The notes beneath the pieces are model-generated. The model saw only the letters and a program-made list of their open reading frames with translations, searched no databases and had not been told where the DNA came from. Of a stretch of 64,000 nucleotides of DNA, positions 11,112-60,179 are shown piece by piece. The stretch's first letter is position 1, and every line of letters begins with the position of its first letter. The stretch comes from a virus, in IMG/VR virus record IMGVR_UViG_3300015374_000004, positions 5,787 to 69,786 of that record. One strand, written 5' to 3'. The translations under genes were made by a program, and so were the position numbers.

Positions 11112-11169
11112 GTGGATGTTGCCTCCAGTCAAGTGGTTGACGTCCCGACCAGTTGCATCGAGAACAGGA

Positions 11170-11424: not shown

Positions 11425-11457
11425 ACTGGAGACTGCTCACCGGTCCAGTGAGTTTCG

Positions 11458-11528
11458 AGGGGTGGGCCGGACTCGAACCGGCGTAGTCCGCTTTGCAGGC
11501 GGACGTCTAGCCACTCGACCACCACCCC
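11458..11528 (-). tRNA. tRNA-Cys (anticodon GCA)
   Basis: Minus strand 5'-GGGGTGG..TCCGC-CTGCAAA-GCGGA..GCCGG-TTCGAGT-CCGGC-CCACCCC-T. 7-bp acceptor, anticodon loop CUGCAAA, T-loop TTCGAGT. 71 nt, no encoded CCA. Confidence 0.8.
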
Positions 11529-16265: not shown

Positions 16266-16322
16266 GTGTTCTATGTGCCTCACTTTCTGCGGGATCCACC
16301 CGCGGTAGGACACGTGTCCGTG

Positions 16323-23840: not shown

Positions 23841-24073
23841 CACATCTCCTGTTCGAGCAGCACCACGGTAGCCGCCTCGTGGAGCGCCTCGCAGAGGTGG
23901 AACACCTGCTCGGCTGGGAAGATCAGGTCGAAGCGCTCCATCACGCCCTCGTCGTCAGGGCGCGCGACCCAGATCTTGACGCAAGGCTGGCCCTCCAGCG
24001 TCCCGCCTTCGATGTGGACACCTTCGGTCCATTCGCTCACTAGCCGGTGGCCTCGATGTAGGTCTTGCGCCAC
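23840..24073 (-). CDS. hypothetical protein
   Basis: Coding bias, but the exact start is uncertain. Confidence 0.35.
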   Translation of the reverse strand: MAQDLHRGHRLVSEWTEGVHIEGGTLEGQPCVKIWVARPDDEGVMERFDLIFPAEQVFHLCEALHEAATVVLLEQEM

Positions 24074-24510
24074 ACGGCGACGTTGGTGGCGTTGAAGGAC
24101 GAGTAGTGGCCCGAGCCCCGTCCGAAGACCGGGGCGGTGTCCAGGTGGAAGTCCAGCACCAAGATCGTGTGCTCGTTCGGGTCACCTGTGATCTTCACCA
24201 CCGGCAGCGCCCGGCCCGAGTCGCGAGACGGGATCACGCAGGCGGTCCAGAAGGCCCAGCCGTTGGCGTTCCAGAACGTGTCGACCGTCGAGTACGGCGC
24301 GTGGAGCGTCGGGTCGGCCGGTTCGGCCAGGATGGCGCAGGAGTGGGGCTCCGGCCGCGGCGGCTTGGCGAGCGGGTCCACGGCCGAGGACCAGAAGATC
24401 TCCTTGAACAGGTAGGTGACCGGCGGCGGGACCGGCGGCGGGGTGATCGCTGGTTCGCAGGCTGTGCCGACGAACACGATGGCGAGGGCGGCGAGGATGG
24501 CGCGCTTCAT
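24040..24510 (-). CDS. lipoprotein with a Pro-rich linker
   Basis: 'MKRAILAALAIVFVGTAC' lipobox followed by 'PPPVPPPV'. Confidence 0.5.
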   Translation of the reverse strand: MKRAILAALAIVFVGTACEPAITPPPVPPPVTYLFKEIFWSSAVDPLAKPPRPEPHSCAILAEPADPTLHAPYSTVDTFWNANGWAFWTACVIPSRDSGRALPVVKITGDPNEHTILVLDFHLDTAPVFGRGSGHYSSFNATNVAVWRKTYIEATG

Positions 24511-24905
24511 CTCAGTGCATCTCCTGGGCAGGCTTGGGGTGGGACGCCGACGAACATGGCCTGGTCGTAGTTGGCGTAGTAGCGGTCACCGAGGTCGGGC
24601 CGGTACCAGCAGAAGTACGGGGCGTGGGCCGGGTCATAGGGGCCGACGTACCAGTAGTTGCAGGAGCGGTCGAGCCACATGATCTTCCGCTGGTCCTTGG
24701 TGGACGGCAGCAGGAAGATCGGCCGTCCGGTGGGGACCGGGCGGGTGTAGGTGTCCGGGAAGACGTCCTTGCACTGGCTGATCGGGGTGACCGGCGGCAG
24801 CACAGGGACCGGAGGCGGGGGTGGCGGGGTGATGCCCGGCTCGCAGGCCCCCACCGTGAAGATCGCGGTGAAGCCGAGCGCGCCGATGAACGCTCTCAGA
24901 GCCAT
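24507..24905 (-). CDS. lipoprotein with a Pro-rich linker (paralog)
   Basis: 'FTVGAC' lipobox followed by 'PPPPPPVPVLPPV'. Confidence 0.5.
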   Translation of the reverse strand: MALRAFIGALGFTAIFTVGACEPGITPPPPPPVPVLPPVTPISQCKDVFPDTYTRPVPTGRPIFLLPSTKDQRKIMWLDRSCNYWYVGPYDPAHAPYFCWYRPDLGDRYYANYDQAMFVGVPPQACPGDALR

Positions 24906-25560: not shown

Positions 25561-25914
25561 ATGACCTGGCACATCCATTCACCACTGGGACGCTTCGGCG
25601 TCTCGGCACCCGGCGCCAAGCGCAAGCGTCAACTGGCCGAGAAGGAGCAGGAGCGACAGGAGTTGCTCGCCGACCTCCGGCAGAAGGCGTTCTTGGAGGC
25701 CACCCAGCCTCGGACCACCTACGTCCCCCTCACCGGCAACTCCGTCCTGTACCAGGGGCTCCACATCCAGCCCCTCCCTCCGTCGCACTCGAACGTGGTC
25801 CAGGAGTACCTCCGTCAGCATCACATGGAGTGGAAGGATCTGACGTCCGAGGATGCCCACCAGATCGTGGAGATCTACGCCCGCATGATCGCGGACGGCC
25901 ACGAGATCTCATAG
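25561..25914 (+). CDS. hypothetical protein
   Basis: Start 'MTWHIHSPLG'. 118 aa. Confidence 0.45.
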   Translation: MTWHIHSPLGRFGVSAPGAKRKRQLAEKEQERQELLADLRQKAFLEATQPRTTYVPLTGNSVLYQGLHIQPLPPSHSNVVQEYLRQHHMEWKDLTSEDAHQIVEIYARMIADGHEIS

Positions 25915-25922
25915 GAGGAGAC

Positions 25923-26135
25923 ATGGAGAACGAGACCATGAAGGCCGAGGCCGAGCCTCTCGACCTCAAGGAGGCCGCCCGGCGCGCCTCGGCGGCCGTT
26001 AAGGGCCTGAACGAGGTGGCGGGCGTGCGGCGCTCGAAGCACACCGGCTCGGTGGTCCCCCCGGACCTGCGCAAGCAGCGGAACCGAGCCAAGGCCAAGC
26101 GGGCCCGCGCCAGCCGGAAGATCAACCGTGGCTGA
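25923..26135 (+). CDS. small basic protein
   Basis: C-terminus 'RKQRNRAKAKRARASRKINRG'. Confidence 0.4.
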   Translation: MENETMKAEAEPLDLKEAARRASAAVKGLNEVAGVRRSKHTGSVVPPDLRKQRNRAKAKRARASRKINRG

Positions 26136-27093
26136 GGTCGTCTACCTCGGCAACTTCCAGCACGACCACTGCACCGAGGTCCACCTCGCCAGGGAGATGC
26201 AGGCCAACGGCCACCGGGTGAGCAAGGTCCAGGAGCCTCACGACGCCAACGAGCGGTTCGTGCGGCGCCTGGAGGCCAAGGTGTCGAACCTCAAGCCCGA
26301 CCTGTTCCTCTGGACGAGGACGTGGGGCCTGCCACCGATGGCGACCGACACGTGGCGACGGTTCGAGGAGAAGGGCATCACCACCGCCTCCTACCACCTC
26401 GACCTGTACCTGGGGCTCAAGCGGGCCGAGAAGATGCGCCGCGACCCGTTCTGGACGACCGGCTACGTCTTCACGCCGGACGGCAACGCCTCCAGCGAGC
26501 GCTACTTCCACTCCATGGGCATCAACCACTGGTTCATGCCGCCCGCGGTCGTCTCCGACGCCGTACATGAGGGCATCAGGATGCCTGAGTACGTCTCCCC
26601 GCTGGCCTTCGTCGGCTCGTGGAAGAACTACCACCCCGAGGAGTGGCCGTTCCGCCAGACGATGGTGCTGTGGCTCCAGAGGCGCTACCAGAGGGAGTTC
26701 GCCGCCTGGGGGGCCAACGGCCGGGGCACGATCCGTGAGGGCCACCTGAACGACCTGTACGCCTCGGTGAAGGTCGTGGTCGGCGACAACCTCTCCCTGC
26801 GGGGCAACACCCACTACATCTCCGACCGCTACTTCGAGACGCTGGGCCGCGGCGGCTTCCTGGTCGCCCCCTACGTCCAGATCCTCGACGAGTTGGGCTT
26901 CGTCCACGGCGAGAACATCTGGACGTATCGCTCGGCCGACCTGTCGGACCTGGAGTACCAGATCAAGGTCACCCTCGCCCTACCGCCCGAGCGGCGCAAG
27001 GAGATCGTCGCCAACGCCATGGCCTTGATCAAGGAGCGACACACGTACCGCCATCGCCTGCAGAAGGCGTTCGAGATCATGGGAGTGCAGTGA
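26128..27093 (+). CDS. glycosyltransferase (CgeB/DUF3880-like)
   Basis: 321 aa. The C-terminal 'YISDRYFETLGRGGFLVAPY' resembles the CgeB-type GT domain. First gene of the glycosylation cassette. Confidence 0.45.
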   Translation: MAEVVYLGNFQHDHCTEVHLAREMQANGHRVSKVQEPHDANERFVRRLEAKVSNLKPDLFLWTRTWGLPPMATDTWRRFEEKGITTASYHLDLYLGLKRAEKMRRDPFWTTGYVFTPDGNASSERYFHSMGINHWFMPPAVVSDAVHEGIRMPEYVSPLAFVGSWKNYHPEEWPFRQTMVLWLQRRYQREFAAWGANGRGTIREGHLNDLYASVKVVVGDNLSLRGNTHYISDRYFETLGRGGFLVAPYVQILDELGFVHGENIWTYRSADLSDLEYQIKVTLALPPERRKEIVANAMALIKERHTYRHRLQKAFEIMGVQ

Positions 27094-27605
27094 AACTCAT
27101 CATCGGCGCAGGACAGGAGAGGATGGAGGGCTGGACGACGGTCGACATCGACCCCGCCAACGAACCTGACATCGTGGCCAGCGCAGACGACCTGAACATG
27201 ATCCCCGACTGGACCGTCGAGGAGATCCGCGCCGTCGACATCCTGGAGCACATGCCCTACCGCACGGTGGGCAAGACGCTGGGCGAGTGGCGCCGAGTGT
27301 TGAAGCCCGGCGCGCTGGCCTTCATCCAAGTCCCGGACGCCGGGACGGTGATGCACTGGTGGGTGAGCCGTGACCCGAGGCTCCTGCAGCGGATCCCCGA
27401 GGAGATGGAGCGGACGTTCATGAACGGGGTCAACTGGCGGCTGATGGGCGGCCAGGACGACGCCTACGGCGACTGGACGTACAACGTCCACTACACGCTG
27501 TTCTCGGCGGCCAGCCTGACCAAGGCCGTGGCCGACGCAGGCTTCCGGCTCCGGGAGATCAACACCGACACCCACCCCAACCTGTACTGCTGGGTGAGCG
27601 CGTGA
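27090..27605 (+). CDS. SAM-dependent methyltransferase
   Basis: 'KLIIGAGQERMEGWTTVDIDP', glycine-rich motif I. Confidence 0.5.
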   Translation: MKLIIGAGQERMEGWTTVDIDPANEPDIVASADDLNMIPDWTVEEIRAVDILEHMPYRTVGKTLGEWRRVLKPGALAFIQVPDAGTVMHWWVSRDPRLLQRIPEEMERTFMNGVNWRLMGGQDDAYGDWTYNVHYTLFSAASLTKAVADAGFRLREINTDTHPNLYCWVSA

Positions 27606-28279
27606 TCACGATCATCTCTCCCCACCTCGACGACGCCGTGCTGTCGCTGGGTGACTTCCTGGCGCGCAACGAGGTGCCGGTCTCGGTTGTCACCGTGCTC
27701 GCTGGCATCCCCGGCTTCCTGCCGCTCACCAAGTACGACTTCGACTGCGGCTTCTCGTCAGGAGCCGAGGCGATGGGACGCAGGCGGGTCGAGGACAAGG
27801 ACGCTCTGGCCTTCCTCCGCTGTGAAGCCCACCACCTCGACTTCCTGGACATGCAGTACGGCATCGAGCAGAACCCGGAGCAGATCAAGGCCGCGCTCAA
27901 GCCGCACCTCGACATGGCCTTCGGTCCGGTGTACGTCCCGCTCGGCCTCGTCCACCCGGACCACGAACTGGTCGCCCGCTGTGCGATGGAGATGCTCCTC
28001 CCCCAGGAGGGCAGGGAGATCTTCGTCTACGAGGACGCACCGTCGCGGGTGCTGTACCCCGAGTCGGTCAGGGAGGCGATCCTGCTTCTCGGCGGTCGGG
28101 GCTGGGTAGTGAGTGACGCGATCTACGTCCCGCAGGAACTAGACCTGATGCGGCGGAAGATGCAAGCCATCCATCACTACCGCTCCCAACTATGGTCCCT
28201 CGATCTCGCATCGTCCCTAGCCCCGGAGAGGATCCACCCAGTGGTCCCCTCCCGCGTCTTGGAGGAGATCCCGTCATGA
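27602..28279 (+). CDS. LmbE/PIG-L family N-acetylglucosaminyl deacetylase
   Basis: 'IISPHLDDAVLSLG' (PIG-L 'HPDDE') and 'HPDHE' motifs. Confidence 0.6.
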   Translation: MITIISPHLDDAVLSLGDFLARNEVPVSVVTVLAGIPGFLPLTKYDFDCGFSSGAEAMGRRRVEDKDALAFLRCEAHHLDFLDMQYGIEQNPEQIKAALKPHLDMAFGPVYVPLGLVHPDHELVARCAMEMLLPQEGREIFVYEDAPSRVLYPESVREAILLLGGRGWVVSDAIYVPQELDLMRRKMQAIHHYRSQLWSLDLASSLAPERIHPVVPSRVLEEIPS

Positions 28280-28788
28280 GGCTGAACTTGGGTTGCGGCC
28301 TCGACGTCCGTGAGGGCTGGGTCAACATCGACTGCGAGCCCTCGGGCAACGGTGCGGTCGTCCTGATGGACGTCGTCAAGGAGGGGATCCTCTACGACAG
28401 CGGCTCGGTCGACTTCATCTTCATGGGGCACATGCTTCACATGGTCGAGCCCGACTCCGTGCCAAAGTTGCTCGGGGAGTGCCATCGAGTCCTCCGTCCC
28501 GGTGGCGCTCTCCGCATCGTCGAGATGGACTTCGAGAAGGCGATCGTCAACTGGCAGAAGGGGAACGACGAGTGGTTCCCGGTCGCTGACGAGATCGAGC
28601 GGACTCTCGACGGCAAGTTGCTGCGCTACCTCACCTGGCACGGCACGCGCCGGTCGCTGTACACGCCCCTCTACCTGTTCTCGCTGTTCACGGACACGGA
28701 CTTCGAGCACTTCGGCCTCGGCCGGTACGGCGACTGCGAGTTGGACGCCAGAGAGTCGGAGTCCGTCGTCTTCGAGGCCATCAAGTGA
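28276..28788 (+). CDS. SAM-dependent methyltransferase (Methyltransf_11-like)
   Basis: 'LNLGCGLDVREGW', 'LRPGGALRIVE'. Confidence 0.55.
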   Translation: MRLNLGCGLDVREGWVNIDCEPSGNGAVVLMDVVKEGILYDSGSVDFIFMGHMLHMVEPDSVPKLLGECHRVLRPGGALRIVEMDFEKAIVNWQKGNDEWFPVADEIERTLDGKLLRYLTWHGTRRSLYTPLYLFSLFTDTDFEHFGLGRYGDCELDARESESVVFEAIK

Positions 28789-29771
28789 CACGGCTGGCGT
28801 TGATCGCCAGGGCAGACAACGGCGGGCTCGGCAACCAGACGTGGGAGATGGCGAACCACCTCAAGCCGGAGAAGGTGCTCGTCGTCCACTCCCGGCACAT
28901 CACGAGGGGTCACGCCGACGTCTCTCGGTACGTCGACTCCGAGGCCGAGGTGCGCATCACCCCGAGAGGGCCGACAGACGCCGAAGCGCGCTGGCTCTGC
29001 TACGGGATCGACAAGATCCTGACCGCGGAGACGTTCTACGGCACAGCGATCCCCACCGCAGCGCGCAGACGGGGCGTGCTGACCATCAACCACTGCAACC
29101 CGGAGATGTTCAGGGCCACCGACACGGCCGACGTGAACCTGGCGCCCACCGACTGGCGCATGGACAGGCTGCCGAAGGGCACCCGAGTCGTCCCGATGCC
29201 GGTGGTGATGGCGTCGGACGAAGGCTGGGACGGCCACAGGACCATCTGCCACGTCCACTCGGACGCCATGTGGGACCGCAACGGGACCGGCGACCTGCTC
29301 GATGCGCTCCAGTACCTCCACGAGTCGACCTTGGTGACGATCCTGGGCGGCAAGGCGGGCTACGAGGAGATCGGCAAGGCCACCGTCATCTGGCTCGGCC
29401 CCATCCAGGACTCCTACAAGATCGCATGGAAGCAGATGAGGGGGATCTTCGTGCTGCCTCGGCGCTTCGGAGGGCTCTGTCTGCCCATCCAGGAGGCCGC
29501 AGCGCGCTCCAGACCCATCATCACGACCAACGTGGGGCCTCAGAACAAGTGGCAGGGCGCCGCGCTGGTCCCTGCGAGCGTCAGGAGCATCGAAACGATG
29601 CCCGGAGGCCGATTCGAGGTCTACCAGTGCTCTCCGAGGGGTCTTGCGCACGAAATCGAGCGCGTTCTGACCATTCACGGCCCTCTGCTGGCGAAACGGG
29701 CCTCCGAATGGGCCTCAGAGCGGTCTTGGGAGGCTCTGGGGCCTCTCTGGACCTCGATCTGCCGTGATTAG
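28785..29771 (+). CDS. glycosyltransferase family 4 (GT-B)
   Basis: The E-X7-E region 'RRFGGLCLPIQEAAARSRPIITT'. Confidence 0.55.
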   Translation: MTRLALIARADNGGLGNQTWEMANHLKPEKVLVVHSRHITRGHADVSRYVDSEAEVRITPRGPTDAEARWLCYGIDKILTAETFYGTAIPTAARRRGVLTINHCNPEMFRATDTADVNLAPTDWRMDRLPKGTRVVPMPVVMASDEGWDGHRTICHVHSDAMWDRNGTGDLLDALQYLHESTLVTILGGKAGYEEIGKATVIWLGPIQDSYKIAWKQMRGIFVLPRRFGGLCLPIQEAAARSRPIITTNVGPQNKWQGAALVPASVRSIETMPGGRFEVYQCSPRGLAHEIERVLTIHGPLLAKRASEWASERSWEALGPLWTSICRD

Positions 29772-30471
29772 CCTCCTGGTGCCCTTCCGGCCCGGAGATC
29801 CGGTCCGAGACCGCCTCTGGAGGCACGTGAAGGGCCTCTGGAGGGCCGCAGCGCCCGATTGGGAGTTGATCTGGGCCTCAGACGACCCAGATGGCCCCTG
29901 GCGCAAGGGTGTGGCCGTCCAGAGGGCTCTGAGCGCCTCCACAGGCGAGATCGTGGCCGTCATCGACGCCGATACGTGGATTCCGGGCGTGTTCGAGGCC
30001 GTGGAGCGCGTCCAGAGCGGCCAGACGTGGGTCAGGAGCCACCATCAGGTGCTCAGACTGACCCAGGAAGCCACCGAGAAGGTGCTCCTGGGAGCCCATA
30101 TCAGCCTCGTCGGGGGGTACCCGGAGAACCTCGTGGACCCTCCGTACACCCAAACGGCGGCCGGAGCGGGCACTGTGTGCCTCAGATCGGTCATCGAGGA
30201 CATTCCCATCGACTGCCGTTTCGCTGGCTGGGGAGGGGAGGATTCGGCCTGGGCGGACGCTCTGACGACCTTCTACGGCCCCGCGAGCCGTGTGAACGAC
30301 TTCTGCTACCACCTGTGGCACCCTCCGGCGCCCAGAATCGGCCCCAAGATCGGTTCAGACCTCTCGAACCAACTCCGCATCCGCTACAAGCAGGCGTTTC
30401 GCAACAGAGAGGCCACAAGGGTCCACGTCGAGGCCGGGAGGTATCACTCCCGGCACTTCGACGTCGTCTGA
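29764..30471 (+). CDS. glycosyltransferase family 2
   Basis: 'ISLLVPFR' and a DxD motif 'VIDADTW'. Confidence 0.55.
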   Translation: MISLLVPFRPGDPVRDRLWRHVKGLWRAAAPDWELIWASDDPDGPWRKGVAVQRALSASTGEIVAVIDADTWIPGVFEAVERVQSGQTWVRSHHQVLRLTQEATEKVLLGAHISLVGGYPENLVDPPYTQTAAGAGTVCLRSVIEDIPIDCRFAGWGGEDSAWADALTTFYGPASRVNDFCYHLWHPPAPRIGPKIGSDLSNQLRIRYKQAFRNREATRVHVEAGRYHSRHFDVV

Positions 30472-30475
30472 GGTA

Positions 30476-30760
30476 CTACCGCAGGTTGCGGAAGGGATCG
30501 GCGCCCAGATCGGGCATCGGACCGGTCCCGTTGGCCATCTTCGGTATCACCAGGCCGCCCCGGCGCCTCTGCAGCGCCTCGTAGAGCCACTGCTCCACGT
30601 TCTCCTCGAAGAAGTAGTGGGACTCCTGGGACTGGGTGTTGAAGATCAACACCCAGCGCTCCGTGCCGTCAGGGAGGGTTGCGGTGGCCTCCCTGACGGT
30701 GAACGGCACTGGTGCCGGTTGGACGATGGGGACGTTGTCCCCCGGCAACTGTGTGGTCAT
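30476..30760 (-). CDS. hypothetical protein
   Basis: 94 aa with coding bias. Confidence 0.4.
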   Translation of the reverse strand: MTTQLPGDNVPIVQPAPVPFTVREATATLPDGTERWVLIFNTQSQESHYFFEENVEQWLYEALQRRRGGLVIPKMANGTGPMPDLGADPFRNLR

Positions 30761-31440
30761 GCCAGCCGACGCCTGGTGGCGTAGACGAGCAGCCCACCGA
30801 GGGCCAGGGCCACCAGGGCAACCGGCGCAGCGTTGGAGCCCTTCCCGGTCGCGGGCAGCGTGGCCGGGGAGACCGTGGCCGATGCGGCCGTGGTCGGGGT
30901 GGTGGCCACCGTGGTCTGCCCAGGGACCGTGGTCGCGGGGACCGTGGTCGTCGGCGTGGTGGTGGTGGAGACGACCTGCGAGGCGCAGACGTACGGGCCA
31001 CCGACTCGGCCGTTGGCCTGACCGTTGCCAGTGAAGACGGCCTTGATGTCGATCTGGCCGCAGCCGACCGTGAAGGTCAGCGTGACCGGGCCGACCGAGT
31101 TGGCCGGGAAGGTGCCGGACACGTCTGAGTCCACCGCGCCGCCCGCACCCGAGGTGCCCTCATGGGCGACCACTCGGATCGGGAACGGCTGGGGCACCGG
31201 CTTGTCCAGGGTGTAGGTGACCGTGGAGCCCTTGCCGTCCGCGGGGACGTTGAGCACGATGGTCACGGTCCGCTGCAGCGTCCCGAAGGTGAACGTCTTC
31301 GAGTTGGTGCAGGTCACCGGGGCCTGCTGGATCTTCTGGTTCCCCCCGCAGAGCGGGAAGGACTGGGCTTGGGCGTGACCGGCTACTGCCGCCCCCCCGA
31401 AGGAGAGGACGGCAGCGACGGCCACGAGGGTCTTCCTCAT
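30757..31440 (-). CDS. LPXTG cell-wall-anchored surface protein with a Thr/Pro-rich stalk
   Basis: N-terminal signal peptide. C-terminal 'LPATG' + hydrophobic segment + 'RRRLA'. Confidence 0.65.
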   Translation of the reverse strand: MRKTLVAVAAVLSFGGAAVAGHAQAQSFPLCGGNQKIQQAPVTCTNSKTFTFGTLQRTVTIVLNVPADGKGSTVTYTLDKPVPQPFPIRVVAHEGTSGAGGAVDSDVSGTFPANSVGPVTLTFTVGCGQIDIKAVFTGNGQANGRVGGPYVCASQVVSTTTTPTTTVPATTVPGQTTVATTPTTAASATVSPATLPATGKGSNAAPVALVALALGGLLVYATRRRLA

Positions 31441-31442
31441 GG

Positions 31443-32453
31443 TTAGCCTCCTGCTACGGCTGCGGCGGCGGCGTCAGCCGTGCCGGTCGTGTTGACGATG
31501 ATGGGTGACTTCCCATCGGTGATGATCACCTTGACTCCGGGGGCGATCTTGTCGATGTAGTGCGACGTGATCAGTTCCGGCGTCAAGGACTGTGCCACAA
31601 GGTTGTTCGCTGCGGCCTCCGCTTCGGCCGCGATCTTCACGGACTCGGCGGAACCCTTGGCGGTCTCGATGGCCTGGTTGGCCTGAGCGGTGGCTGTGGC
31701 GACCTGAGCCTGGGCCTCCTGGGCCTTCTGCTTGGCAGCCTGCTTGTCCTCGATGGACTGCTTGTACTGCTTCGAGAAGTCCAGGTTGTCGATCAGCAGG
31801 TCGTTGACCGTGATCGAGTACTTGCGCAGATCCTCCGCGAGCCGAGCCTTGACGGCCTTGCGGATGTCCTCTCGGTGCGGAGCGATCTGGTCAGCCGTGT
31901 AGGGGACCGTCTCCTCCTTGAAGAAGTTGTGGACCCTCGCGGGCACCAGCACCTCGAACCAGTTCTTGCCGACGTTCTTGAACAAGTCCTGGACCTTGTT
32001 CTTGTCCAAGGAGTAGTTCAGGGTGACGTCGAAGAACACGTCCTGGGTCTCTGACGAGAAGGCCACGATCTCCTGGCCCTGGCCCTTGTCCTTCTGGAAC
32101 CGGTACTTCTGCACCTTGATCGACTGCTTCGACAGCGACTCCCAGGGCGGCAAGATCTGCACGCCAGGGTCACGTTGGCCGACGATCTTCCCGAACCGGT
32201 AGACGACCCCGACTTCACCGGAGCCGACCGTATGGAACGAGAAGAAGGCCGTGACCAGCAGCCACAGGAAGAAGCCTGCGCCGAAGACGGCCATCCCGCG
32301 AGCAGGGGTGCCCTCGTACTTGTAGACGGGCTCCCCCCTCTGTCGGGTCTCGTAGTCGTCTTCGACCTTGCTGCTGGCTGCCAGGGCTCCCACAGCGGAG
32401 AGCCCCAGCAGGAGCAGGGATACGAGGATCCAGCCGATCATCACGCAGCCCAC
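31443..32453 (-). CDS. SPFH/Band-7 (stomatin/prohibitin-like) membrane protein
   Basis: N-terminal TMs. 'GEVGVVYRFGKIVGQRDPGVQILPPW' SPFH core and a coiled-coil C-terminus. Confidence 0.65.
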   Translation of the reverse strand: MGCVMIGWILVSLLLLGLSAVGALAASSKVEDDYETRQRGEPVYKYEGTPARGMAVFGAGFFLWLLVTAFFSFHTVGSGEVGVVYRFGKIVGQRDPGVQILPPWESLSKQSIKVQKYRFQKDKGQGQEIVAFSSETQDVFFDVTLNYSLDKNKVQDLFKNVGKNWFEVLVPARVHNFFKEETVPYTADQIAPHREDIRKAVKARLAEDLRKYSITVNDLLIDNLDFSKQYKQSIEDKQAAKQKAQEAQAQVATATAQANQAIETAKGSAESVKIAAEAEAAANNLVAQSLTPELITSHYIDKIAPGVKVIITDGKSPIIVNTTGTADAAAAAVAGG

Positions 32454-33262
32454 CAGTTCGGCAGGCGGTGGCCCCCACGGCCGGAGTTGATGACGTCGAC
32501 CGCAGCCGCAGCCACCGACTGAGCCTTGGGCCGACCGGTCGCCCGGCGGATGCCCTCAGCCCGCTGGAGCAGGCCCCGAGCGCCTCCACGAGCACTGCCC
32601 AACTTGCGGGCAGCCTCCTCGTCGACGAGAGCGTCGCCGTAGCGGTTCATCAGGAGGCCGAAGCCAGCCACGATGTTGCCAGCGGGCTCCTTGCCGTAGG
32701 CGAGGTTGATGAACTTGAGGACTCGGTCGAGCCCCTCGGAGCCGTTCTCGTCCCAGATGCGACGGAGGGCTGCGAGGCAGCGGATGTGGGTGATGTCCGT
32801 GGCTTCATCCCCGTTGGAGCCGGTCGAGCCAGCGACGGGGACGGCGTAGCCGTTCTCGAAGCAGATCCGAGCGATCTCGTTCTCGGGCACCCGTCCGGCC
32901 TGGACGGCGACCTTGAACTTGTCGTTGGGGGAGACGTTCAGGCGGTCGTTGCGCCGCAGGAACATCTCAGCCTCCTCCTGCTCGGAGAGGCCCTCACGGA
33001 CTTCGCACTCGATCATCTGATCGTTCCAGCCCATGGCGCGCAGTGCGGCGACACGGTGCTGGCCGTCGATGACGTAGTACCAGCCGTCCCGGAAGGACAT
33101 GACGGGGTAGCCGAGTTCGTCCGGGTCGAACTCACTGGCGAGGTAATCCACGAAGTGGCTTCGCAGATCCCGCTGGGTGAGGGGAGAGACTCGGATCCGC
33201 TCGATGGGCACCCAACGGATGTCCCCCGTTCGGACGAGCCGCTCACGTGTTTGCGTGGGCAA
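32441..33262 (-). CDS. ParB-like nuclease domain protein
   Basis: 'YYVIDGQHRVAALRAMG' is the ParB/Srx N-terminal motif. Confidence 0.55.
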   Translation of the reverse strand: MPTQTRERLVRTGDIRWVPIERIRVSPLTQRDLRSHFVDYLASEFDPDELGYPVMSFRDGWYYVIDGQHRVAALRAMGWNDQMIECEVREGLSEQEEAEMFLRRNDRLNVSPNDKFKVAVQAGRVPENEIARICFENGYAVPVAGSTGSNGDEATDITHIRCLAALRRIWDENGSEGLDRVLKFINLAYGKEPAGNIVAGFGLLMNRYGDALVDEEAARKLGSARGGARGLLQRAEGIRRATGRPKAQSVAAAAVDVINSGRGGHRLPNWWAA

Positions 33263-38969: not shown

Positions 38970-39386
38970 GGGGCGTGCCGTCTATGCGACGCGTGGACTC
39001 CGCGAGTCATCCTCGAGCGGACCCGAGGGGTGTGCGAGTCCTGCGTGAGCCAAGGGCTGACGTCCCGGCCGATACGCGTCAAGATGGGTGGGGCGCCAGT
39101 CGTTGTTTCCACCCGGCGCTGGCGCTCCACCAAGGGCAGGAAGACGAACCGCAACGCAGTGCGTGCTGCCCACACCGCGGCGATGAAGCGTCTGCGTGAC
39201 GCCTTCCCCGAGATCTACCGGCTGATCTACATGGAGGAGCGGGCCAAGCGTGGCCTGCAGCCGGTGCCGATCGACCTGCCCTGCCTCGATCACGAGCGCC
39301 ATGCTCGGGAGATGGCGGCTGCCGGGGTGGACTTCGACATGGATGCTGTGGTCGGCGCTCTGCGTGACGCCGGGATCGAGGACTGA
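38952..39386 (+). CDS. hypothetical Cys-rich protein (zinc-finger)
   Basis: 'CRLCDAW...CESC'. Confidence 0.35.
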   Translation: MEILAHGACRLCDAWTPRVILERTRGVCESCVSQGLTSRPIRVKMGGAPVVVSTRRWRSTKGRKTNRNAVRAAHTAAMKRLRDAFPEIYRLIYMEERAKRGLQPVPIDLPCLDHERHAREMAAAGVDFDMDAVVGALRDAGIED

Positions 39387-42485: not shown

Positions 42486-44219
42486 ATGCTCAAGTTCCCC
42501 GAGGTTCCCTCGGATCTTTCGGCAGTGGACGACGCGGCGCTTGAGGCGCTGCGTGCCGAACTGCACCGGAAGTTGTCGGTCGTCGCCAGCGGTGACTACG
42601 AGCCGGAGGCCGGTGACATCGGCCTTGTCGGTGCGGCCACTGCCGGTCACGAGTCGGTGAAGGCAGAGATCGCCAAGCGTGAGGCCGCCTCGGCCAACGC
42701 CCAGGCCGTCCTCGCCGCCGCCGCCGCTTCGGTGGCTGTGGCCGACCCGGAGGATGACGAAGACACGGACGGTGATGGCGACGTCGATGAGGATGACGTC
42801 ACCGAGGCCGACGACGAGGTCGATACGGGTGCCGCCACCCACGTCGACGAGGTCGAGCCCGACACCGAGATCGAGGCTGAGGTCGACGCCGAGAGCGCCG
42901 AGTCCCTCGCCGTCGCCTCCACGGCCAACGGTCGGCGCACCCCCCAGAAGGGCGTGGGCGCCAAGACCCGCCCGCTGAGTGGCGCTCCGAAGGGTGCGGT
43001 CACCGCCTACGACGGCGTGCCCGGCAAGAAGGCCGGTGAGTCCTTCGACTCCTGGAAGGACGTGTCCTTCGCCCTCCAGGAGCGTGGCCGCAGCGTCGGT
43101 GCGAGCAAGGATCTGGTCCCGGTGGCTGGCGTCAAGGCCAACTACGCCAAGGACCGGGTGCTGCTGGACACCGCCTCGACCAACACCTGGAACCTGAGCC
43201 GGTTCGAGCCGGACGAGATCCAGGCGGCCCTGTGCGCTCCCTGCACGCCGTACTACAACCTCTCCTGCCAGAACACGGACCGCCGCCCGGTGTTCAACAG
43301 CCTGCCCCAGTTCCAGGCTCCCAGGGGTTGCGTGAGCATCTACCCGTCGCCGTCGCTCTCCGACATCACCACCGGCTACGGCCTGTGGGACAAGGACGAC
43401 GACGCTGACAGCAACGCCACGAAGGCGGCCTGCCAGACGATCGCCTGCGCCACGCCGACCGAGTACTTCTTCTACGGCGTGTACCGCTGCATCACCATCA
43501 AGAACATGCTGCAGATGACCTTCCCGGAACTGGTCGAGGCGTACCTCAACCGGCTCGCGGCGGCCACGGCCCGCATGGCCGAGAAGCAGTTGCTCGACCT
43601 GATGGGCTCGGCGGTCAACCACATCACGGCTCCGAGCCGGGTGTACGGCGCCTACGAGACGCTGGCCTCCACGCTGCTGATGTACATCACCGGCTACCAG
43701 GAGCGGCAGCGGTGGGACTTCGACTCCATCGACATGTGGGCTCCTCGCTGGCTGGCGAACGCCCTCCGCATGGACATGTTCCTCCACCGCAACACGAACG
43801 GCGGCCGCAAGACGGTGCCGAGCCTCTCCGAGGTCAACGGGATGCTGGCCAACGTCGGTGTCAACCCGCACTGGTTCATCGACACCCCGTCCTGGGGCAT
43901 CGCTGCTCCGACGCAGGGCACTGGTGCGAGCAACCTGATCACCTGGCCGGACAGCGTGAGCGTCCTGCTGGCGCCTCCGGGGAAGTTCGCCCTGATCGAC
44001 CGTGGGGAACTGCGGATCGGCGTGACCGGCAACAACATCTACCGGGACAACACCTCGAACAGCCGCAACGAGTTCACCATGTTCTTCGAGACCTTCGAGG
44101 GGATCGTGGACACTGACTCCTGCCCGGCCGACATGCTGAACGTGCCGCTCTGCTACAACGGCGCTCAGGTCGCCGACGTGGATGCGGACTGCGACGGTCG
44201 AGACCTGCTGTCGACCTGA
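42486..44219 (+). CDS. major capsid protein with an N-terminal acidic scaffold-like (delta) domain
   Basis: RBS AGGAGG. 577 aa. The N-terminal 160 aa are D/E-rich and coiled-coil; the remainder is consistent with an HK97-fold MCP. Confidence 0.55.
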   Translation: MLKFPEVPSDLSAVDDAALEALRAELHRKLSVVASGDYEPEAGDIGLVGAATAGHESVKAEIAKREAASANAQAVLAAAAASVAVADPEDDEDTDGDGDVDEDDVTEADDEVDTGAATHVDEVEPDTEIEAEVDAESAESLAVASTANGRRTPQKGVGAKTRPLSGAPKGAVTAYDGVPGKKAGESFDSWKDVSFALQERGRSVGASKDLVPVAGVKANYAKDRVLLDTASTNTWNLSRFEPDEIQAALCAPCTPYYNLSCQNTDRRPVFNSLPQFQAPRGCVSIYPSPSLSDITTGYGLWDKDDDADSNATKAACQTIACATPTEYFFYGVYRCITIKNMLQMTFPELVEAYLNRLAAATARMAEKQLLDLMGSAVNHITAPSRVYGAYETLASTLLMYITGYQERQRWDFDSIDMWAPRWLANALRMDMFLHRNTNGGRKTVPSLSEVNGMLANVGVNPHWFIDTPSWGIAAPTQGTGASNLITWPDSVSVLLAPPGKFALIDRGELRIGVTGNNIYRDNTSNSRNEFTMFFETFEGIVDTDSCPADMLNVPLCYNGAQVADVDADCDGRDLLST

Positions 44220-44290: not shown

Positions 44291-45082
44291 GTGGCTGTCA
44301 CCGGCTTTGGTCCCGTCATCCAGTTGCCGACCCCCGCACTGCGGGATGTCGGTCTCCTGCTGGACAACATCCCCCGCCCTGGGATCGACTCGCGGTGGCC
44401 GTTGGGTGTCAAGTTCCAGCCCTTCGACTTCACGGCCCTGCTGTTCAACGACTCGGACTGCGCGCCGACGAACTTGCCCGGCACGAACCGGACGTTCCCG
44501 ACCGTCGTCGAGCAGCCCGCCTTCTCGATCTGGGATGCCGTCAAGTGCTCCACGCTGTGGATGACGCCCCAGGAGTTGGAGGACAACGTCCGCTACCGCT
44601 GGCCGAACCTCATCTCCTACGCCTTCGCCCAGGAGTTGCTCACCAGCAACGCCTCGGGTGGTCACAGCCTCCAGGACGACGACGTCGACCTCGGTGCCTC
44701 GGCCTCGGTTCAGGTCGCTCTGGCTGAGGCCGAGGAGTTCCTGGCGCTCAACCTCAAGAACTCCGTGGGGCTCGTCCACATGTCGCCGAGCCTCCTGGCC
44801 TACGCCGTGGCCAACAACCATGTCTTCCGCCGGGGCAACACGTACTACACGCCTGGCGGCCACATCGTGATCGCCGACGCTGGCTACCAGGTTGCTGAGA
44901 CCACCACCTCGGTCATGTACGTCACCGGCCCGGTGTTCTACGCCATGACGGACGTGGAGTCCTTGGGAGCCCCGTACTCGAACCTGGACCGGACGCACAA
45001 CGACTACCGGGCGCTCCAGATGGCCTACGGGATCCTCCTGTTCGACCCGGCTCTCGTGCGCTCCACGACGGTCACGAAGTGA
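44291..45082 (+). CDS. head-tail connector/adaptor candidate
   Basis: RBS AAGGAG, GTG start. Position after the MCP. Confidence 0.4.
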   Translation: MAVTGFGPVIQLPTPALRDVGLLLDNIPRPGIDSRWPLGVKFQPFDFTALLFNDSDCAPTNLPGTNRTFPTVVEQPAFSIWDAVKCSTLWMTPQELEDNVRYRWPNLISYAFAQELLTSNASGGHSLQDDDVDLGASASVQVALAEAEEFLALNLKNSVGLVHMSPSLLAYAVANNHVFRRGNTYYTPGGHIVIADAGYQVAETTTSVMYVTGPVFYAMTDVESLGAPYSNLDRTHNDYRALQMAYGILLFDPALVRSTTVTK

Positions 45083-45861: not shown

Positions 45862-46578
45862 ATGGCCACGAATCTCGCCGGTGACTTCTGCATCCAGCAG
45901 TACGGCGTTTGCCACCTGCGGGTCAGTCGGCTGGGGTCGAACTGTGCGCCGCTGACGGGCGCGAACAACGGCGCTGTCTCGGCGTCGATCCTGACCCTCA
46001 CGGCTTCCCCGGAGATCGAGGAAGGGCAGGCGTACGAGTTCAAGAACGGCTGCGGTGTTCTCATCGCGAACGCTCTGGACTGCGACCGGATCAAGCGGTG
46101 GAACCTGACCGGTGAACTCCTGACGTTCGACTACGAACTCCTGGAGATCATGTTCGGCGGCGAACTGATCACAGGCGCGGTCGCCTCGTCCTTCGCTGGT
46201 GAGGTCATCGGCTGGGCGAGCCCCGGCTCGACGGCTGACTGCTCGAACGGTGCGGCGCTTGAGGTCTGGACCAAGATCTCGGTGGGTCCGGGCTCCTGCA
46301 CCCCGGCCGCCAACCCCCCGCTGTTCACCCGGCACATCTTCCCGAAGGTGGTCTTCACTCCCGGCGACAAGACCATCGAGAACGACATCGCTCGGGTAGC
46401 GTTCACTGGGAAGGCCGTGGAGAACCCGGCCTGGGGCAACGGGGCGTTCAACGACTACCCCGGCGTCTACCCCGGTCCGCTGGAGAGCGGCTACTTCCAG
46501 TTCGTCGAGGCTGCCATGCCTTCCGGTGTCACCACCGCCGGTTGTGGCTACGTGACGGTGCCTGCCGACGCATCCTGA
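45862..46578 (+). CDS. major tail protein candidate
   Basis: 238 aa. Position 4 genes before the tape measure. Confidence 0.4.
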   Translation: MATNLAGDFCIQQYGVCHLRVSRLGSNCAPLTGANNGAVSASILTLTASPEIEEGQAYEFKNGCGVLIANALDCDRIKRWNLTGELLTFDYELLEIMFGGELITGAVASSFAGEVIGWASPGSTADCSNGAALEVWTKISVGPGSCTPAANPPLFTRHIFPKVVFTPGDKTIENDIARVAFTGKAVENPAWGNGAFNDYPGVYPGPLESGYFQFVEAAMPSGVTTAGCGYVTVPADAS

Positions 46579-58853: not shown

Positions 58854-60179
58854 ATGGCCATCACGTTCAACGGCACCACCGACGAGATCCAGTTCACTGG
58901 CGCGGCGGCATGGCCCACGTGGACAGGGATCACGGTTGCCTGCCTGTTCTACAAGAACGCCAGTTCCGCCGTTCAGAACCTCTACCTCGCTGACGCCACC
59001 GGCTCGCCCGCTGACATCAGGCTCTCGTTCTCTGCCACCGACAAGATCCGCCTCTTTCTCAACGGCACCAACGCTGCTGGAGCGAACACCTTCGGCACCG
59101 GCCAGCACCTCGCTGGAGCCATCAAGGGGACCGGCCTCGTAGCGCCTTCCTTCCCCTACATCACGCCGCTGGGTGGCACGTGGGCCGTCGACACCACCGC
59201 GACGGTCCTCAATGACCCCACCACCACCGCCCCCGGCGTAGCGGAGACGCTCGGCTCGCAGAACGGGTCGTCCTTCTTCAACGGCGACATCACCGCCCTG
59301 GGGGTCTGGAGCCGCGCTCTGGGGCTCGATGAGTTCAAGAGCCTGCTCGACATCGGCTACAAGAACTGGTGGACAGTCCCCGGCTGCGCGCGGCTGTTCG
59401 TGCTCGACCAGCACTCCACCTCCACCAAGGTCATCGACCTGGCGGGGTCAGGGGCCAAGGAGTCCACCCGCACCGGCACGTCGATCGCCACCCGCTCCGT
59501 GCCCATGGCGAGGATGCACGGTCGCTACTGGCAGATCGAGCAGAGGCTCGCCGCCACGGCCGTCAACGTCGCTGCTGGGTCGGCCTCAGCGACAGGTACG
59601 GCCTACACCGCGGCGCTCACCCTCTCCGGCTCTGCTGCGAACGCGAGTGGTACTGGCTCGGCGAACACTCCTGCCCCCTCAATCAGCGTCAATGCGGGCG
59701 CGGTCAGTGGCTCCGGGACGGCGTTCAACGCCACGGTCTCCACGGCCGCGAGCATCACGGTCAACGCTGGTTCGGCCAGTGCCACCGGCTCTGCCTACGC
59801 GGCTACTCTCACCCTCAGCACCGCTGGTGGAGCCAGTTCGGGGACCGCTACCGCAGGCGGCCCTTCTTCTAGCATCTCGGTCGGAGCAGGAGCCGGTTCC
59901 GCCAGCGGGGCCGCATTCAACGCCACCGTCTCGACGGCCGCGTTCCTCTCCGTCAACGCTGGAGCGGCCTCTGGTACGGGCACGGCGTACGACGCCACCG
60001 TCACCACGCTGTCGACGACCAACCCGGCAGCCCAGCGGGCGTTGGGTGCCGGGTCGGCCTACAACGCGACCGTACACATCGTGTCGGGGGGGAATCTGCA
60101 CCAGGCGTACGACGTCTTCCTCGGGTCCAGCGCGGACATCCTCATCACCCTCACCCCATCTGCGGACCTGCTCCTCTAG
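58854..60179 (+). CDS. tail fibre protein with tandem Ala/Ser/Thr/Gly-rich ~33-aa repeats
   Basis: Repeats 'NAGSASATGSAYAATLTLS', 'NAGAVSGSGTAFNATVSTAA', ... Confidence 0.45.
   Translation: MAITFNGTTDEIQFTGAAAWPTWTGITVACLFYKNASSAVQNLYLADATGSPADIRLSFSATDKIRLFLNGTNAAGANTFGTGQHLAGAIKGTGLVAPSFPYITPLGGTWAVDTTATVLNDPTTTAPGVAETLGSQNGSSFFNGDITALGVWSRALGLDEFKSLLDIGYKNWWTVPGCARLFVLDQHSTSTKVIDLAGSGAKESTRTGTSIATRSVPMARMHGRYWQIEQRLAATAVNVAAGSASATGTAYTAALTLSGSAANASGTGSANTPAPSISVNAGAVSGSGTAFNATVSTAASITVNAGSASATGSAYAATLTLSTAGGASSGTATAGGPSSSISVGAGAGSASGAAFNATVSTAAFLSVNAGAASGTGTAYDATVTTLSTTNPAAQRALGAGSAYNATVHIVSGGNLHQAYDVFLGSSADILITLTPSADLLL

Follow-up and report, generated by a model that had tools for sequence, protein, structure and literature searches.

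A six-gene glycosyltransferase, methyltransferase and LmbE deacetylase operon of an uncultured actinophage and its predicted role in virion glycosylation

The viral DNA analysed here (64,000 nucleotides, positions 5,787 to 69,786 of IMG/VR record IMGVR_UViG_3300015374_000004; the whole stretch is referred to as the window) carries a compact block of genes for glycosyltransferases (GTs), methyltransferases (MTs) and a deacetylase, which raises the question of what these enzymes modify. The window represents a novel, uncultured actinophage: it carries a WhiB gene, and its capsid protein shows at most 30% identity to those of isolates. The block comprises the following genes:

25561..25914, + strand: small ORF, 117 aa, gene call present on the identical Logan contig
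25923..26135, + strand: small basic ORF, 70 aa, 8-bp overlap with the ORF1 start
26128..27093, + strand: ORF1, soluble GT-B glycosyltransferase, 321 aa (PF13524 Glyco_trans_1_2)
27090..27605, + strand: ORF2, small class I SAM methyltransferase, 171 aa (Methyltransf_23)
27602..28279, + strand: ORF3, LmbE/PIG-L family zinc de-N-acetylase, 225 aa (PF02585 PIG-L)
28276..28788, + strand: ORF4, small class I SAM methyltransferase, 170 aa (Methyltransf_11)
28785..29771, + strand: ORF5, divergent GT4-like GT-B glycosyltransferase, 328 aa (Glyco_trans_1_4)
29764..30471, + strand: ORF6, GT-A type glycosyltransferase, 235 aa (DAD at residues 68-70, WGGED at 156-160)

The six cassette genes (26128-30471, + strand) form one translationally coupled operon, as proposed in a sequence-only reading of the window. 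All six ORFs are present and every one of the five junctions overlaps, by 4-8 bp, while the gene order had to be corrected to GT, MT, LmbE, MT, GT, GT. The third-position GC (GC3) of the six ORFs ranges from 0.83 to 0.96. None of them is a pseudogene, and an identical copy of the cassette is carried by a Logan contig of the independent assembly SRR4027998. None of the six proteins contains a transmembrane segment. For ORF4, the start is most likely the ATG at 28276, notwithstanding the longest ORF from 28192, since this start yields an ATGA overlap with ORF3 and the homolog-like N-terminus MRLNLGCG; it also agrees with the Logan-contig gene call and the N-termini of homologs. Based on their GC3 values of 0.87 and 0.93, both small upstream ORFs (25561-26135) are probably part of the same operon. 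The first, which showed no match to Pfam or NCBIfam, is the head of the + strand block and a possible first gene of the operon, and the second, for which no family match was found, is probably co-translated with the cassette.

Three of the cassette proteins are glycosyltransferases, two of the retaining type with a GT-B fold, as seen in high-confidence structure models, and one of the GT-A type with a DxD motif. ORF1 matched PF13524 with 62.2 bits (cut-off 25, E-value 6.9e-17) and phrog_28745 'glycosyltransferase' with 1.9e-36; its previous description as a CgeB-like GT is correct with respect to the GT, the CgeB likeness holding as a PF13524 match only. More than 1000 homologs of ORF1 were found, many of them fusions with Methyltransf_23, the MT type of ORF2 (Rosetta-stone). 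ORF1 and ORF5 are the two conserved core GTs. ORF5 matched Glyco_trans_1_4 with 32.1 bits (cut-off 27, 1.6e-7), comprises a conserved PRRxGGLxLPxxEA motif and showed a profile match to 7qsg (E 0.0018); tblastn against phage isolates gave no match. The family calls of the sequence-only reading (three GTs, two MTs, LmbE) were recovered by Pfam and PHROG, except that the Pfam match of ORF6 to Glycos_transf_2 (19.6 bits) lies below the threshold of 23.3. ORF6 matched phrog_1721 'galactosyl transferase' with 8e-9 and showed 38% identity to GTs of the Streptomyces phages Satis and Kradal. With counterparts in few related cassettes only (L006, L021, L031 and L085), it is an accessory cassette member.

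The two methyltransferases are paralogs with 27% identity. ORF2 matched Methyltransf_23 with 31.9 bits (cut-off 27, 1.4e-7) and shows a GxG motif at residues 6-8; ORF4 matched Methyltransf_11 with 35.2 bits (cut-off 21.2, 2e-8) and is the core methyltransferase kept most often. ORF3 matched PIG-L with 36.6 bits (cut-off 28.2, 7.6e-9), and its motifs SPHLDD (residues 6-11) and HPDH (residues 118-121) are intact. All motifs named earlier were located, HLDD at nt 27623-27634, HPDH at 27953-27964 and the DxD of ORF6, which reads DAD, at 29965-29973. The catalytic residues H8, D10, D11, H118, D120 and H121 of ORF3 are invariant across 41 homologs, and the nearest solved relatives of its family are the GlcNAc deacetylases Dbv21 and Orf2* (profile, E 5e-30 to 5e-29). 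Together with the ORF1-methyltransferase fusions, these observations make the earlier suggestion of a de-N-acetylated, methylated hexosamine reasonable. A tblastn search of 50,697 phage genomes with ORF3 gave no match, i.e. the deacetylase was found in none of the sequenced phage isolates searched, while LmbE relatives are encoded on 76 IMG/VR contigs.

A collinear core of ORF1, a methyltransferase and ORF5, with or without LmbE, was found on more than 75 metagenomic viral contigs, and in nearly all of the 76 LmbE-encoding contigs ORF1, MT, LmbE and ORF5 are collinear. The cassette versions of a Nocardia nova prophage, one ENA contig and L095-L106 contain no LmbE. Since LmbE is missing from many related cassettes, its partner GT is uncertain. 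In relatives of the window phage the core is part of the head-tail structural module, with head genes on one side and tail genes on the other, and in L003, L004, L008-L011, L014, L023 and L095-L106 it is placed directly among homologs of the capsid, adaptor and tail-tube genes of the window phage. A low-GC version (L038) does not visibly adjoin structural genes. In the window phage, the cassette is an isolated + strand block outside the structural module, with the portal gene ~9 kb and the capsid gene ~12 kb downstream. A Micromonospora homolog is located within a PKS, P450 and GT gene cluster.

The Gordonia phages GodonK, Forza and Sixama and the Streptomyces phage TurkishDelight share the lineage of the window phage and encode homologs of its capsid, adaptor and tail-tube proteins. 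In these cultured relatives, different GT genes occupy the corresponding module position, and the virion proteins terminate in GS or AS. Their GT families differ from those of the cassette (GodonK gp81 is a GT2). In phiRKBJ001-like Streptomyces phages, a GT-methyltransferase pair adjoins the tailspike, the GT being an ORF1 homolog (32% identity). The GT clusters of both groups contain neither LmbE nor an ORF5-type GT, and no experimental tests of these clusters were found in the literature. In view of the position of the conserved core within the head-tail module of relatives, virion glycosylation is the best-supported role of the cassette, for which two virion proteins are considered as acceptors:

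42486..44219, + strand: major capsid protein, 577 aa (phrog_777, 7.9e-45)
45862..46578, + strand: major tail (tube) protein, 238 aa (phrog_792, 1.2e-25)

Chaperone and tape measure genes follow the tail-tube gene, whose product ends in ...GYVTVPADAS, the terminal Ser of which is the predicted main glycan acceptor. The capsid protein, whose C-terminus is a possible second acceptor, ends in ...DLLST and therefore in Thr, not Ser. In all 15 distinct relatives with a cassette-containing module, the last two residues of the tail-tube protein are AS or GS. Among isolates, a final Ser was found in the tail-tube protein of 4/4 phages with GTs in the module versus 1/5 without, and in the capsid protein of 4/4 versus 0/5, an association that may partly reflect shared ancestry, since Ser-ending is common in the tail-tube family (84 of 135 representatives, 62%) and the compared loci are related. 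The capsid proteins end in GS or TS in the isolates with module GTs and not in those without; the capsid C-termini of relatives are ...LAS, TGS, LGS, APS, YQS or AAS. In GodonK, Sixama and Forza, a GS end occurs on four different virion proteins. In Che8 and Corndog, the C-termini of the capsid and tail-tube subunits read GS, GS, GS and DS and, according to PMC12619734, are glycosylated. The earlier statement that actinophage GT cassettes glycosylate capsid and tail proteins agrees with what PMC11600133, PMC12363180 and PMC12619734 report, citing Freeman 2023, for capsid and tail-tube subunits.

Altogether, it is assumed, with a probability of roughly 0.55, that the cassette O-glycosylates the C-termini of virion subunits in the cytoplasm, attaching a hexosamine glycan that is methylated and partly de-N-acetylated. 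The soluble enzymes would act on the subunits inside the host cell, prior to or in the course of virion assembly. At the C-terminal end of the tail-tube protein (...PADAS), one GT would transfer a HexNAc to the Ser hydroxyl, GlcNAc being the most likely sugar; the same step would probably also glycosylate the capsid protein at its C-terminal Ser/Thr (...LLST). Removal of the N-acetyl group by ORF3 would lead to glucosamine, ORF1 and ORF6 would extend the glycan, and ORF2 and ORF4 would add methyl groups, either to O or to the amine exposed by deacetylation. Throughout this scheme we infer the donor sugars, the order of the enzymes and O- versus N-methylation.

Two-step modules of GT4 and LmbE enzymes comprise BshA/BshB, MshA/MshB, PIG-A/PIG-L and the aminoglycoside GT with 2'-N-acetylparomamine deacetylase; by analogy with the first three pairs, ORF5 is the candidate initiating GT. 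While these modules act on malate, inositol, phosphatidylinositol and 2-deoxystreptamine, the acceptor of the cassette is probably a protein. Furthermore, the cassette contains extra GTs and MTs instead of a subsequent ligase or acyltransferase, and LmbE is dispensable in many of its relatives. Orf2* (teicoplanin) and Dbv21 (A40926) are glycopeptide pseudoaglycone deacetylases, whose substrate is a GlcNAc O-linked to a peptide residue. At ~270 aa, both enzymes process a cross-linked heptapeptide antibiotic that has yet to be N-acylated, whereas ORF3 comprises 225 aa, is phage-encoded and has no acyltransferase partner.

Other targets have to be considered in view of the following genes:

24040-24905, - strand: two poly-Pro lipoprotein-like ORFs
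30757..31440, - strand: phage-encoded LPXTG cell-wall protein (TIGR01167, 18.6 bits, cut-off 15.9)
31443-32453, - strand: Band-7 protein
58854..60179, + strand: repeat protein rich in Ala/Gly/Ser/Thr, 441 aa, encoded after the minor tail genes

The first three entries flank the cassette and are envelope-related; the LPXTG protein shows a signal peptide, a Thr/Pro-rich TTTTPTTTVPATTVP stalk, an LPATG motif, a TM segment and an RRRLA tail. These neighbours, the separation from the structural module and the teichoic-acid-type Glyphos_transf domains present in related cassettes would fit a remodelling of the host cell envelope, in which the LPXTG protein with its Thr/Pro-rich stalk or, at the cytoplasmic face, a polymer of the wall is glycosylated, e.g. 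for superinfection exclusion or receptor masking. Nonetheless, this is unlikely, as homologs of the LPXTG, Band-7 and lipoprotein genes were undetected in related cassette loci, relatives carry the cassette within the head-tail operon, the cassette contains no flippase, polymerase, GT-C enzyme or membrane segment, and the presence of GTs is tracked by the terminal-Ser pattern of virion proteins. That pattern, as the co-varying conserved feature, also argues against the repeat protein at 58854-60179 as the main acceptor of a virion glycan, the target proposed by the sequence-only reading. Its S+T content is 25% (peak 43% in 30 aa) and degenerate protein repeats are visible, with no DNA tandem repeat in the gene. 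However, the protein matched no Pfam or PHROG family, its homolog was undetected in cassette-bearing relatives and no tie to the cassette was found, which makes this acceptor rather improbable.

It is very improbable that the GTs glycosylate modified DNA bases like the T4 alpha-/beta-glucosyltransferases and thereby evade restriction: the likeness is generic GT-B, with higher scores for other GT4 enzymes, and the window ORFs scanned include neither a dCMP/dUMP hydroxymethylase nor a homolog of thymidylate synthase. Such a role is also a poor match for a deacetylase and two small methyltransferases of the sugar type, and for the position of related cassettes within structural modules. An equally slight chance is given to the synthesis of a small-molecule glycoside (a mycothiol-/bacillithiol-like thiol or an aminoglycoside-/glycopeptide-like metabolite) as an auxiliary metabolic function. 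The pairing of GT4 and LmbE follows the MshA/MshB and BshA/BshB logic, LmbE is nearest to natural-product deacetylases, and the cluster around the Micromonospora homolog points in the same direction. Yet neither the cassette nor the window ORFs scanned provide a Cys ligase, acyltransferase, aglycone-forming enzyme or exporter (a flippase was likewise not found among these ORFs), three GTs and two MTs favour an oligosaccharide, and the synteny with virion genes is conserved.

Like Che8 gp108-110 and Corndog gp35-38 (Freeman et al. 2023, Cell Host Microbe 31:1216), the cassette combines several soluble GTs with a methyltransferase component in an actinophage, and the Corndog GT genes, situated between portal and protease, are embedded in the structural module as in the window phage's relatives. 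Ser-ending is shared with the tail-tube protein of the window phage and with the tail-tube and capsid proteins of its cassette-in-module relatives, while the window capsid ends in Thr. Over its full length, ORF6 weakly matches Corndog gp37 and Che8 gp109. In contrast, ORF1, ORF5, both methyltransferases and LmbE showed no detectable similarity to Che8 or Corndog enzymes; identity with that cassette was rejected, five of six enzymes having no detectable counterpart there. The Che8 and Corndog systems lack a deacetylase, and their methyltransferase (Corndog gp35, C-terminal half of Che8 gp108) is larger and of another type. Glycosylation has been shown experimentally in Che8 and Corndog, whereas it is a prediction for the window cassette. 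The cassette thus resembles known mycobacteriophage virion glycosylation with mostly different enzymes. If the proposed function is true, tail and head of this phage would be coated with glycans as shown experimentally for Che8 and Corndog, but with a different chemistry.

Strong coding signal was found in six plus-strand open reading frames of the region 26128-30471, with a third-position GC of 0.83-0.96, and at every junction of this cassette the start of a gene overlaps the preceding stop by 4-8 bp. The genes, referred to as ORF1 to ORF6, encode in this order a glycosyltransferase (GT), a SAM methyltransferase, an LmbE/PIG-L deacetylase (LmbE), a second methyltransferase and two further GTs. 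An independent assembly, SRR4027998, contains an identical copy with the same gene calls, in which ORF4 starts at 28276 and two small genes are called upstream:

25561-25914, plus strand, small upstream gene
25923-26135, plus strand, small upstream gene with an 8 bp overlap with ORF1

Based on coding signal, protein families, motifs and the identical copy, the coupled six-gene cassette described in the sequence-only reading is confirmed, the ORF4 start and the two upstream genes being small corrections, and the motifs HLDD, HPDH and DxD named there were all found. Simple scans of the operon surroundings revealed no promoter or terminator. None of the six proteins contains a membrane segment or signal peptide; the 19-residue hydropathy maximum is at most 1.2 in five of them, and the value of 1.77 for ORF3 is confined to a conserved Rossmann core strand. 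As judged from the sequence, the cassette products are soluble, co-translated enzymes with intact catalytic motifs.

ORF1 lies above the gathering score of PF13524 (Glyco_trans_1_2), the sole Pfam family reported for it, comprises a GT-B fold and matched a glycosyltransferase family in PHROGs with 1.9e-36. Its earlier designation as "CgeB-like" holds as long as it is read as PF13524 membership only. For ORF5, PF13692 (Glyco_trans_1_4) reached 32.1 bits compared to a threshold of 27, while PF00534 was slightly under threshold with 25.2 compared to 26.4 bits. The two-Rossmann-domain GT-B fold is present in the predicted model of ORF5, and the second Glu of the E-x7-E motif (E237) is invariant, while the position of the first Glu lies inside a PRRFGGL stretch without Glu. 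Searches of PDB sequences with ORF1, ORF5 and ORF6 gave nothing useful; since sequence search was insufficient, the structural relatives of ORF1 and ORF5 were determined via fold comparison. The AlphaFold models from deep alignments were confident, with a pLDDT of 96.2 for ORF1 and 94.6 for ORF5. According to these models, both are two-domain GT-B enzymes nearest to retaining GT4-type transferases, with differences too small for an assignment of donor or acceptor. In the case of ORF6, the Pfam model Glycos_transf_2 remained under its gathering score (19.6 compared to 23.3 bits) and covered residues 46-75 only. The protein contains DAD at residues 68-70 and WGGED at residues 156-160, matched phrog_1721 ("galactosyl transferase") with 8e-9 and is 38% identical to proteins annotated as GTs in Streptomyces phages. 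The assignment of ORF6 as a GT2/GT-A glycosyltransferase is backed by the DxD motif and the GT-annotated relatives, but not by the sub-threshold Pfam model.

ORF3 matched PF02585 (PIG-L) with 36.6 bits compared to a threshold of 28.2 (E 7.6e-9) and carries SPHLDD at residues 6-11 and HPDH at residues 118-121, with H8, D10, D11, H118, D120 and H121 invariant across 41 homologs. The ORF3 family profile matched the glycopeptide GlcNAc deacetylases Orf2* and Dbv21 with about 5e-30, while the matches to BshB and diacetylchitobiose deacetylase were far weaker. By homology, ORF3 is assigned to the LmbE/PIG-L family with a predicted activity as GlcNAc-glycoside de-N-acetylase. ORF2 matched Methyltransf_23 (31.9 bits, threshold 27) and ORF4 Methyltransf_11 (35.2 bits, threshold 21.2), and both show the glycine-rich motif I at residues 6-8 (GAG and GCG, respectively). 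Going by these matches, the two are class I SAM-dependent methyltransferases; they are paralogs.

The window is a novel actinobacteriophage with a GC content of 65-66%. The best matches of its capsid protein belong to phages of Arthrobacter, Microbacterium, Gordonia and Mycobacterium, and its identity does not exceed 30% across the 50,697 deposited phage genomes searched. The main virion and packaging genes are as follows:

5240-6757, plus strand, large terminase
39386-40894, portal
42486-44219, capsid protein
45079-45795, head-tail adaptor
45862-46578, major tail protein
tape measure protein of 2012 aa

Minor tail proteins, WhiB, ERF and YqaJ recombination proteins and a Ro60 homolog are also encoded. 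The terminase gene is located about 33 kb from the portal/capsid module; since two minus-strand blocks and the cassette block lie in between, the genome alternates between strand blocks. The N-terminus of the capsid protein (42486-43000, plus strand) comprises an Ala- and acid-rich extension of about 170 residues (…DPEDDEDTDGDGDVDEDDVTEADDEVD…), possibly a fused scaffold or delta domain that is cleaved off during maturation. A ParB-like protein (DUF6551, phrog_1033) is encoded at 32441-33262 on the minus strand. The 64 kb showed no integrase, a hint of a lifestyle that is extrachromosomal or strictly lytic. The Ro60 ortholog (9534-11132, minus strand) contains TROVE and vWA domains (E 1e-44 to 1e-48), and a tRNA-Cys (11457-11528, minus strand, 63 bits) is located about 325 bp away from its start codon. 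Rfam gave the tRNA only, and no Y RNA beside the Ro60 gene reached the gathering score. A further minus-strand gene (14922-16313, 463 aa) encodes a class II glutamine amidotransferase domain resembling the N-domain of GlmS (phrog_4736, 1e-20), followed by a C-terminal half without assignment, and this protein could feed hexosamine synthesis. Since the amidotransferase domain alone matched and no SIS domain was found, its role as a GlmS-like hexosamine supplier was not adopted.

In the comparison with the 50,697 phage genomes, the cassette DNA gave no match by megablast or blastn, and tblastn gave none for ORF5 or for LmbE, the latter searched with the version of the window and that of the low-GC metagenomic viral contig L038. 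Due to the missing LmbE match, the full cassette is considered absent from these genomes. Among isolates, ORF1 matched in nine Streptomyces phages only, where it adjoins a tailspike and a methyltransferase gene. IMG/VR scans with the single proteins ORF1 and ORF3 revealed no close relatives. The alignment-based scan of IMG/VR found an LmbE relative in 76 viral contigs, nearly all of which carry collinear ORF1, methyltransferase, LmbE and ORF5 genes as determined by tblastn with the window proteins. In metagenomes, 665 homologs of ORF3 (E up to 0.001) and more than 1000 of ORF1 were obtained. The module ranges from high-GC contigs (35-45% identity) to contigs of about 32% GC (25-33% identity), in which it is expanded by an NAD-dependent sugar epimerase/dehydratase, an FkbM methyltransferase and a GT47-like protein. 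An eight-gene cassette of about 32% GC is present in L038 (6901-13259) and about 50 similar IMG/VR loci, with the order in L038 of GT, NDP-sugar epimerase/dehydratase, MT11, FkbM methyltransferase, LmbE, GT47-like protein, unknown protein and GT4-like protein; no structural genes visibly adjoin cassettes of this type.

Cassettes lacking LmbE occur in an ENA contig, in the related loci L095-L106 and, directly ahead of the terminase, in a prophage of Nocardia nova SH22a, and bear an FkbM methyltransferase, a two-domain GT or a Glyphos_transf-like protein. This distribution indicates a core of ORF1, methyltransferase and ORF5, with LmbE and ORF6 as accessory members. A fused Methyltransf_23 domain is present in many of the ORF1 homologs, and this fusion ties ORF1 and ORF2 to one product. 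Four Sorangium chromosomes (L110-L113, about 11.6-12.2 Mb) carry a 39%-identical, stand-alone ORF1 homolog at a conserved position; the other cassette genes are absent from these loci, which offer no functional clue. The ORF1 family is therefore not exclusive to phages.

Further relatives were found by an alignment-based locus search with a six-sequence tail-tube alignment as query. In the related loci L003, L004, L008-L011, L014, L023 and L095-L106, the cassette lies directly among homologs of the capsid, adaptor and tail-tube genes of the window and of the protein encoded at 44291, and precedes the chaperones and the tape measure gene. Other GT genes occupy the equivalent place in the cultured phages GodonK, Forza, Sixama and TurkishDelight, which comprise the same structural gene families, and the mycobacteriophage Corndog carries a methyltransferase and three GTs between portal and protease. 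In the window, the cassette has been displaced to a plus-strand block of its own, with the portal gene about 9 kb and the capsid gene about 12 kb downstream. The cassette is conserved as a module and, in relatives, is syntenic with virion genes.

A possible acceptor was observed at the C-termini of these virion proteins. For the mycobacteriophages Che8 and Corndog, the passages of later articles that cite the original study describe capsid and tail-tube subunits as glycosylated at their C-termini (Freeman 2023 as cited in PMC11600133, PMC12363180, PMC12619734). The four subunits end in ...TGS, ...DGS, ...VGS and ...GDS; in the window, the tail tube ends in ...GYVTVPADAS and the capsid protein in ...DLLST. 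The endings in further phages are as follows:

C-terminal Ser in tail-tube and capsid proteins of metagenomic loci and isolates
Metagenomic loci (distinct ones) that carry the cassette inside the module: tail tube 15/15 (AS or GS); capsid Ser in most loci having a capsid gene
Isolates with GT in the module (GodonK, Sixama, Forza, TurkishDelight): tail tube 4/4; capsid 4/4
Isolates without GT in the module (RoadKill, Pumpernickel, DSL-LC01, Atuin, Cece): tail tube 1/5; capsid 0/5

Among the control isolates, RoadKill has no GT annotated in its whole genome, and the other four have none in the module. In the cultured Gordonia phages GodonK, Sixama and Forza, with GTs in the same module, a terminal GS is common to four consecutive virion proteins (capsid protein, the one following it, tail tube and adaptor), which looks like a shared modification tag; no description of these endings was found in the literature searched. 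The C-termini of TurkishDelight are TS for the capsid and AS for the tail tube. Within the tail-tube family, 84 of 135 full-length representatives are Ser-terminal, which is far above any background frequency. Since the loci compared are phylogenetically related and the citing articles give only the C-termini of capsid and tail tube as published sites, to which cryo-EM studies added nothing, the terminal Ser as glycan acceptor is treated as a well-motivated prediction and not as a result. The sequence-only reading had proposed the Ser/Thr-rich fibre (58854-60179) as target. For this protein no homolog was detectable in cassette-bearing relatives, nor any link comparable to the terminal Ser, and it is considered an unsupported target; its gene contains no DNA tandem repeat.

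Taken as a virion-modifying pathway, the cassette would act in the cytoplasm, where a GT-B enzyme would add HexNAc to the hydroxyl group of the terminal Ser of the tail tube and probably also to the capsid C-terminus. By analogy to the GT4 and LmbE pairs BshA/BshB, MshA/MshB and PIG-A/PIG-L, ORF5 is the candidate initiating GT. The acetyl group would then be removed by ORF3, the glycan extended by ORF1 and ORF6, and hydroxyls or the freed amine methylated by ORF2 and ORF4, with donor sugars, enzyme order and methylation site all as we infer them. Since no acyltransferase or ligase is present, the amine would either be left unmodified or receive methyl groups.

The regions flanking the cassette encode several proteins of cell envelope type:

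24040-24510 and 24507-24905, minus strand, adjacent small proteins with lipoprotein-like N-termini (…VGTAC and …VGAC) followed by poly-proline (PPPVPPP, PPPPPPVPVLPP), without family matches
30757-31440, minus strand, sortase substrate with signal peptide, globular domain, Thr/Pro-rich stalk (STTTTPTTTVPATTVPGQTTVATTPTT), LPATG, TM helix and RRRLA tail
31443-32453, minus strand, Band-7/SPFH (HflK/C-like) protein, anchored in the membrane, whose coiled C-terminus is rich in Ala and Gln; its gene adjoins the LPXTG gene

The LPXTG protein at 30757-31440 matched TIGR01167 above the cut-off, is encoded two genes away from the cassette, on the other strand, and may serve superinfection exclusion or as a surface decoy.

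The most serious rival to virion glycosylation is a remodelling of the host cell envelope by the cassette enzymes, as suggested by the flanking LPXTG wall protein with its Thr/Pro stalk, the Band-7 protein and the two lipoprotein-like open reading frames, and by teichoic-acid-type domains in related cassettes. However, no homologs of these envelope-type neighbours were detected at related cassettes, and the operon comprises no export or membrane machinery. A serotype conversion of the Gtr type was rejected based on the lack of membrane proteins in the operon, which contains no flippase, GT-C enzyme or polyprenol-phosphate GT. Glycosylation of DNA as by the T4 enzymes AGT and BGT was rejected as the main reading since no hydroxymethylase was found; Thymidylat_synt or related domains were absent among the window open reading frames scanned with Pfam or PHROGs, a subset of all those in the window. 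A thiol (mycothiol or bacillithiol) or natural-product pathway would require ligase, acyltransferase or aglycone genes, and was rejected due to their absence; in particular, no Cys ligase (MshC/BshC) is present in the cassette or the window open reading frames scanned.

Compared to the enzymes of Che8 and Corndog, only ORF6 gave a match, which is weak and full-length (Corndog gp37 with E 5e-4 and Che8 gp109 with E 1e-3 in an 8-sequence database), while the other five cassette enzymes showed none. The deacetylase is new relative to the Che8/Corndog context. By analogy, the cassette would work like the Che8/Corndog system without being a member of it. Literature covering LmbE, phage, glycosyltransferase and capsid together gave no description of such a cassette.

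Altogether, we tentatively propose, with a probability of roughly one in three, a widespread and undescribed family of phage virion-glycosylation cassettes in which the C-terminal Ser is a general glyco-tag and the LmbE versions add a de-N-acetylated amino sugar to virions. The family would consist of an ORF1-type GT-B enzyme, a small methyltransferase and an ORF5-type GT4-like enzyme, with or without LmbE. A free C-terminal Ser (-GS/-AS) on the tail tube, the capsid and sometimes the adaptor would be read by these and other actinophage GT systems, and LmbE-bearing versions would give the virion surface a cationic or N-methylated amino sugar.

To our knowledge, demonstrations of phage virion glycosylation are limited to a few mycobacteriophages, and we know of no report of a de-N-acetylated amino sugar on any phage particle. 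Virion glycosylation of mycobacteriophages is reported to shield the particles from antibodies. The cassette core occurs in many environmental phages, and if the cassette serves the same end by means of unrelated enzymes and an amino sugar, glycan coats of phages would be more common and chemically more varied than known. The interest of the finding would rise with a confirmation of the amino-sugar chemistry and of the terminal Ser as a tag. From the C-terminal Ser signature, glycosylated phages and the proteins that carry the glycan could be recognised simply by sequence, with uses in phage annotation, in choosing or engineering therapeutic phages and in the design of protein-glycosylation tags.
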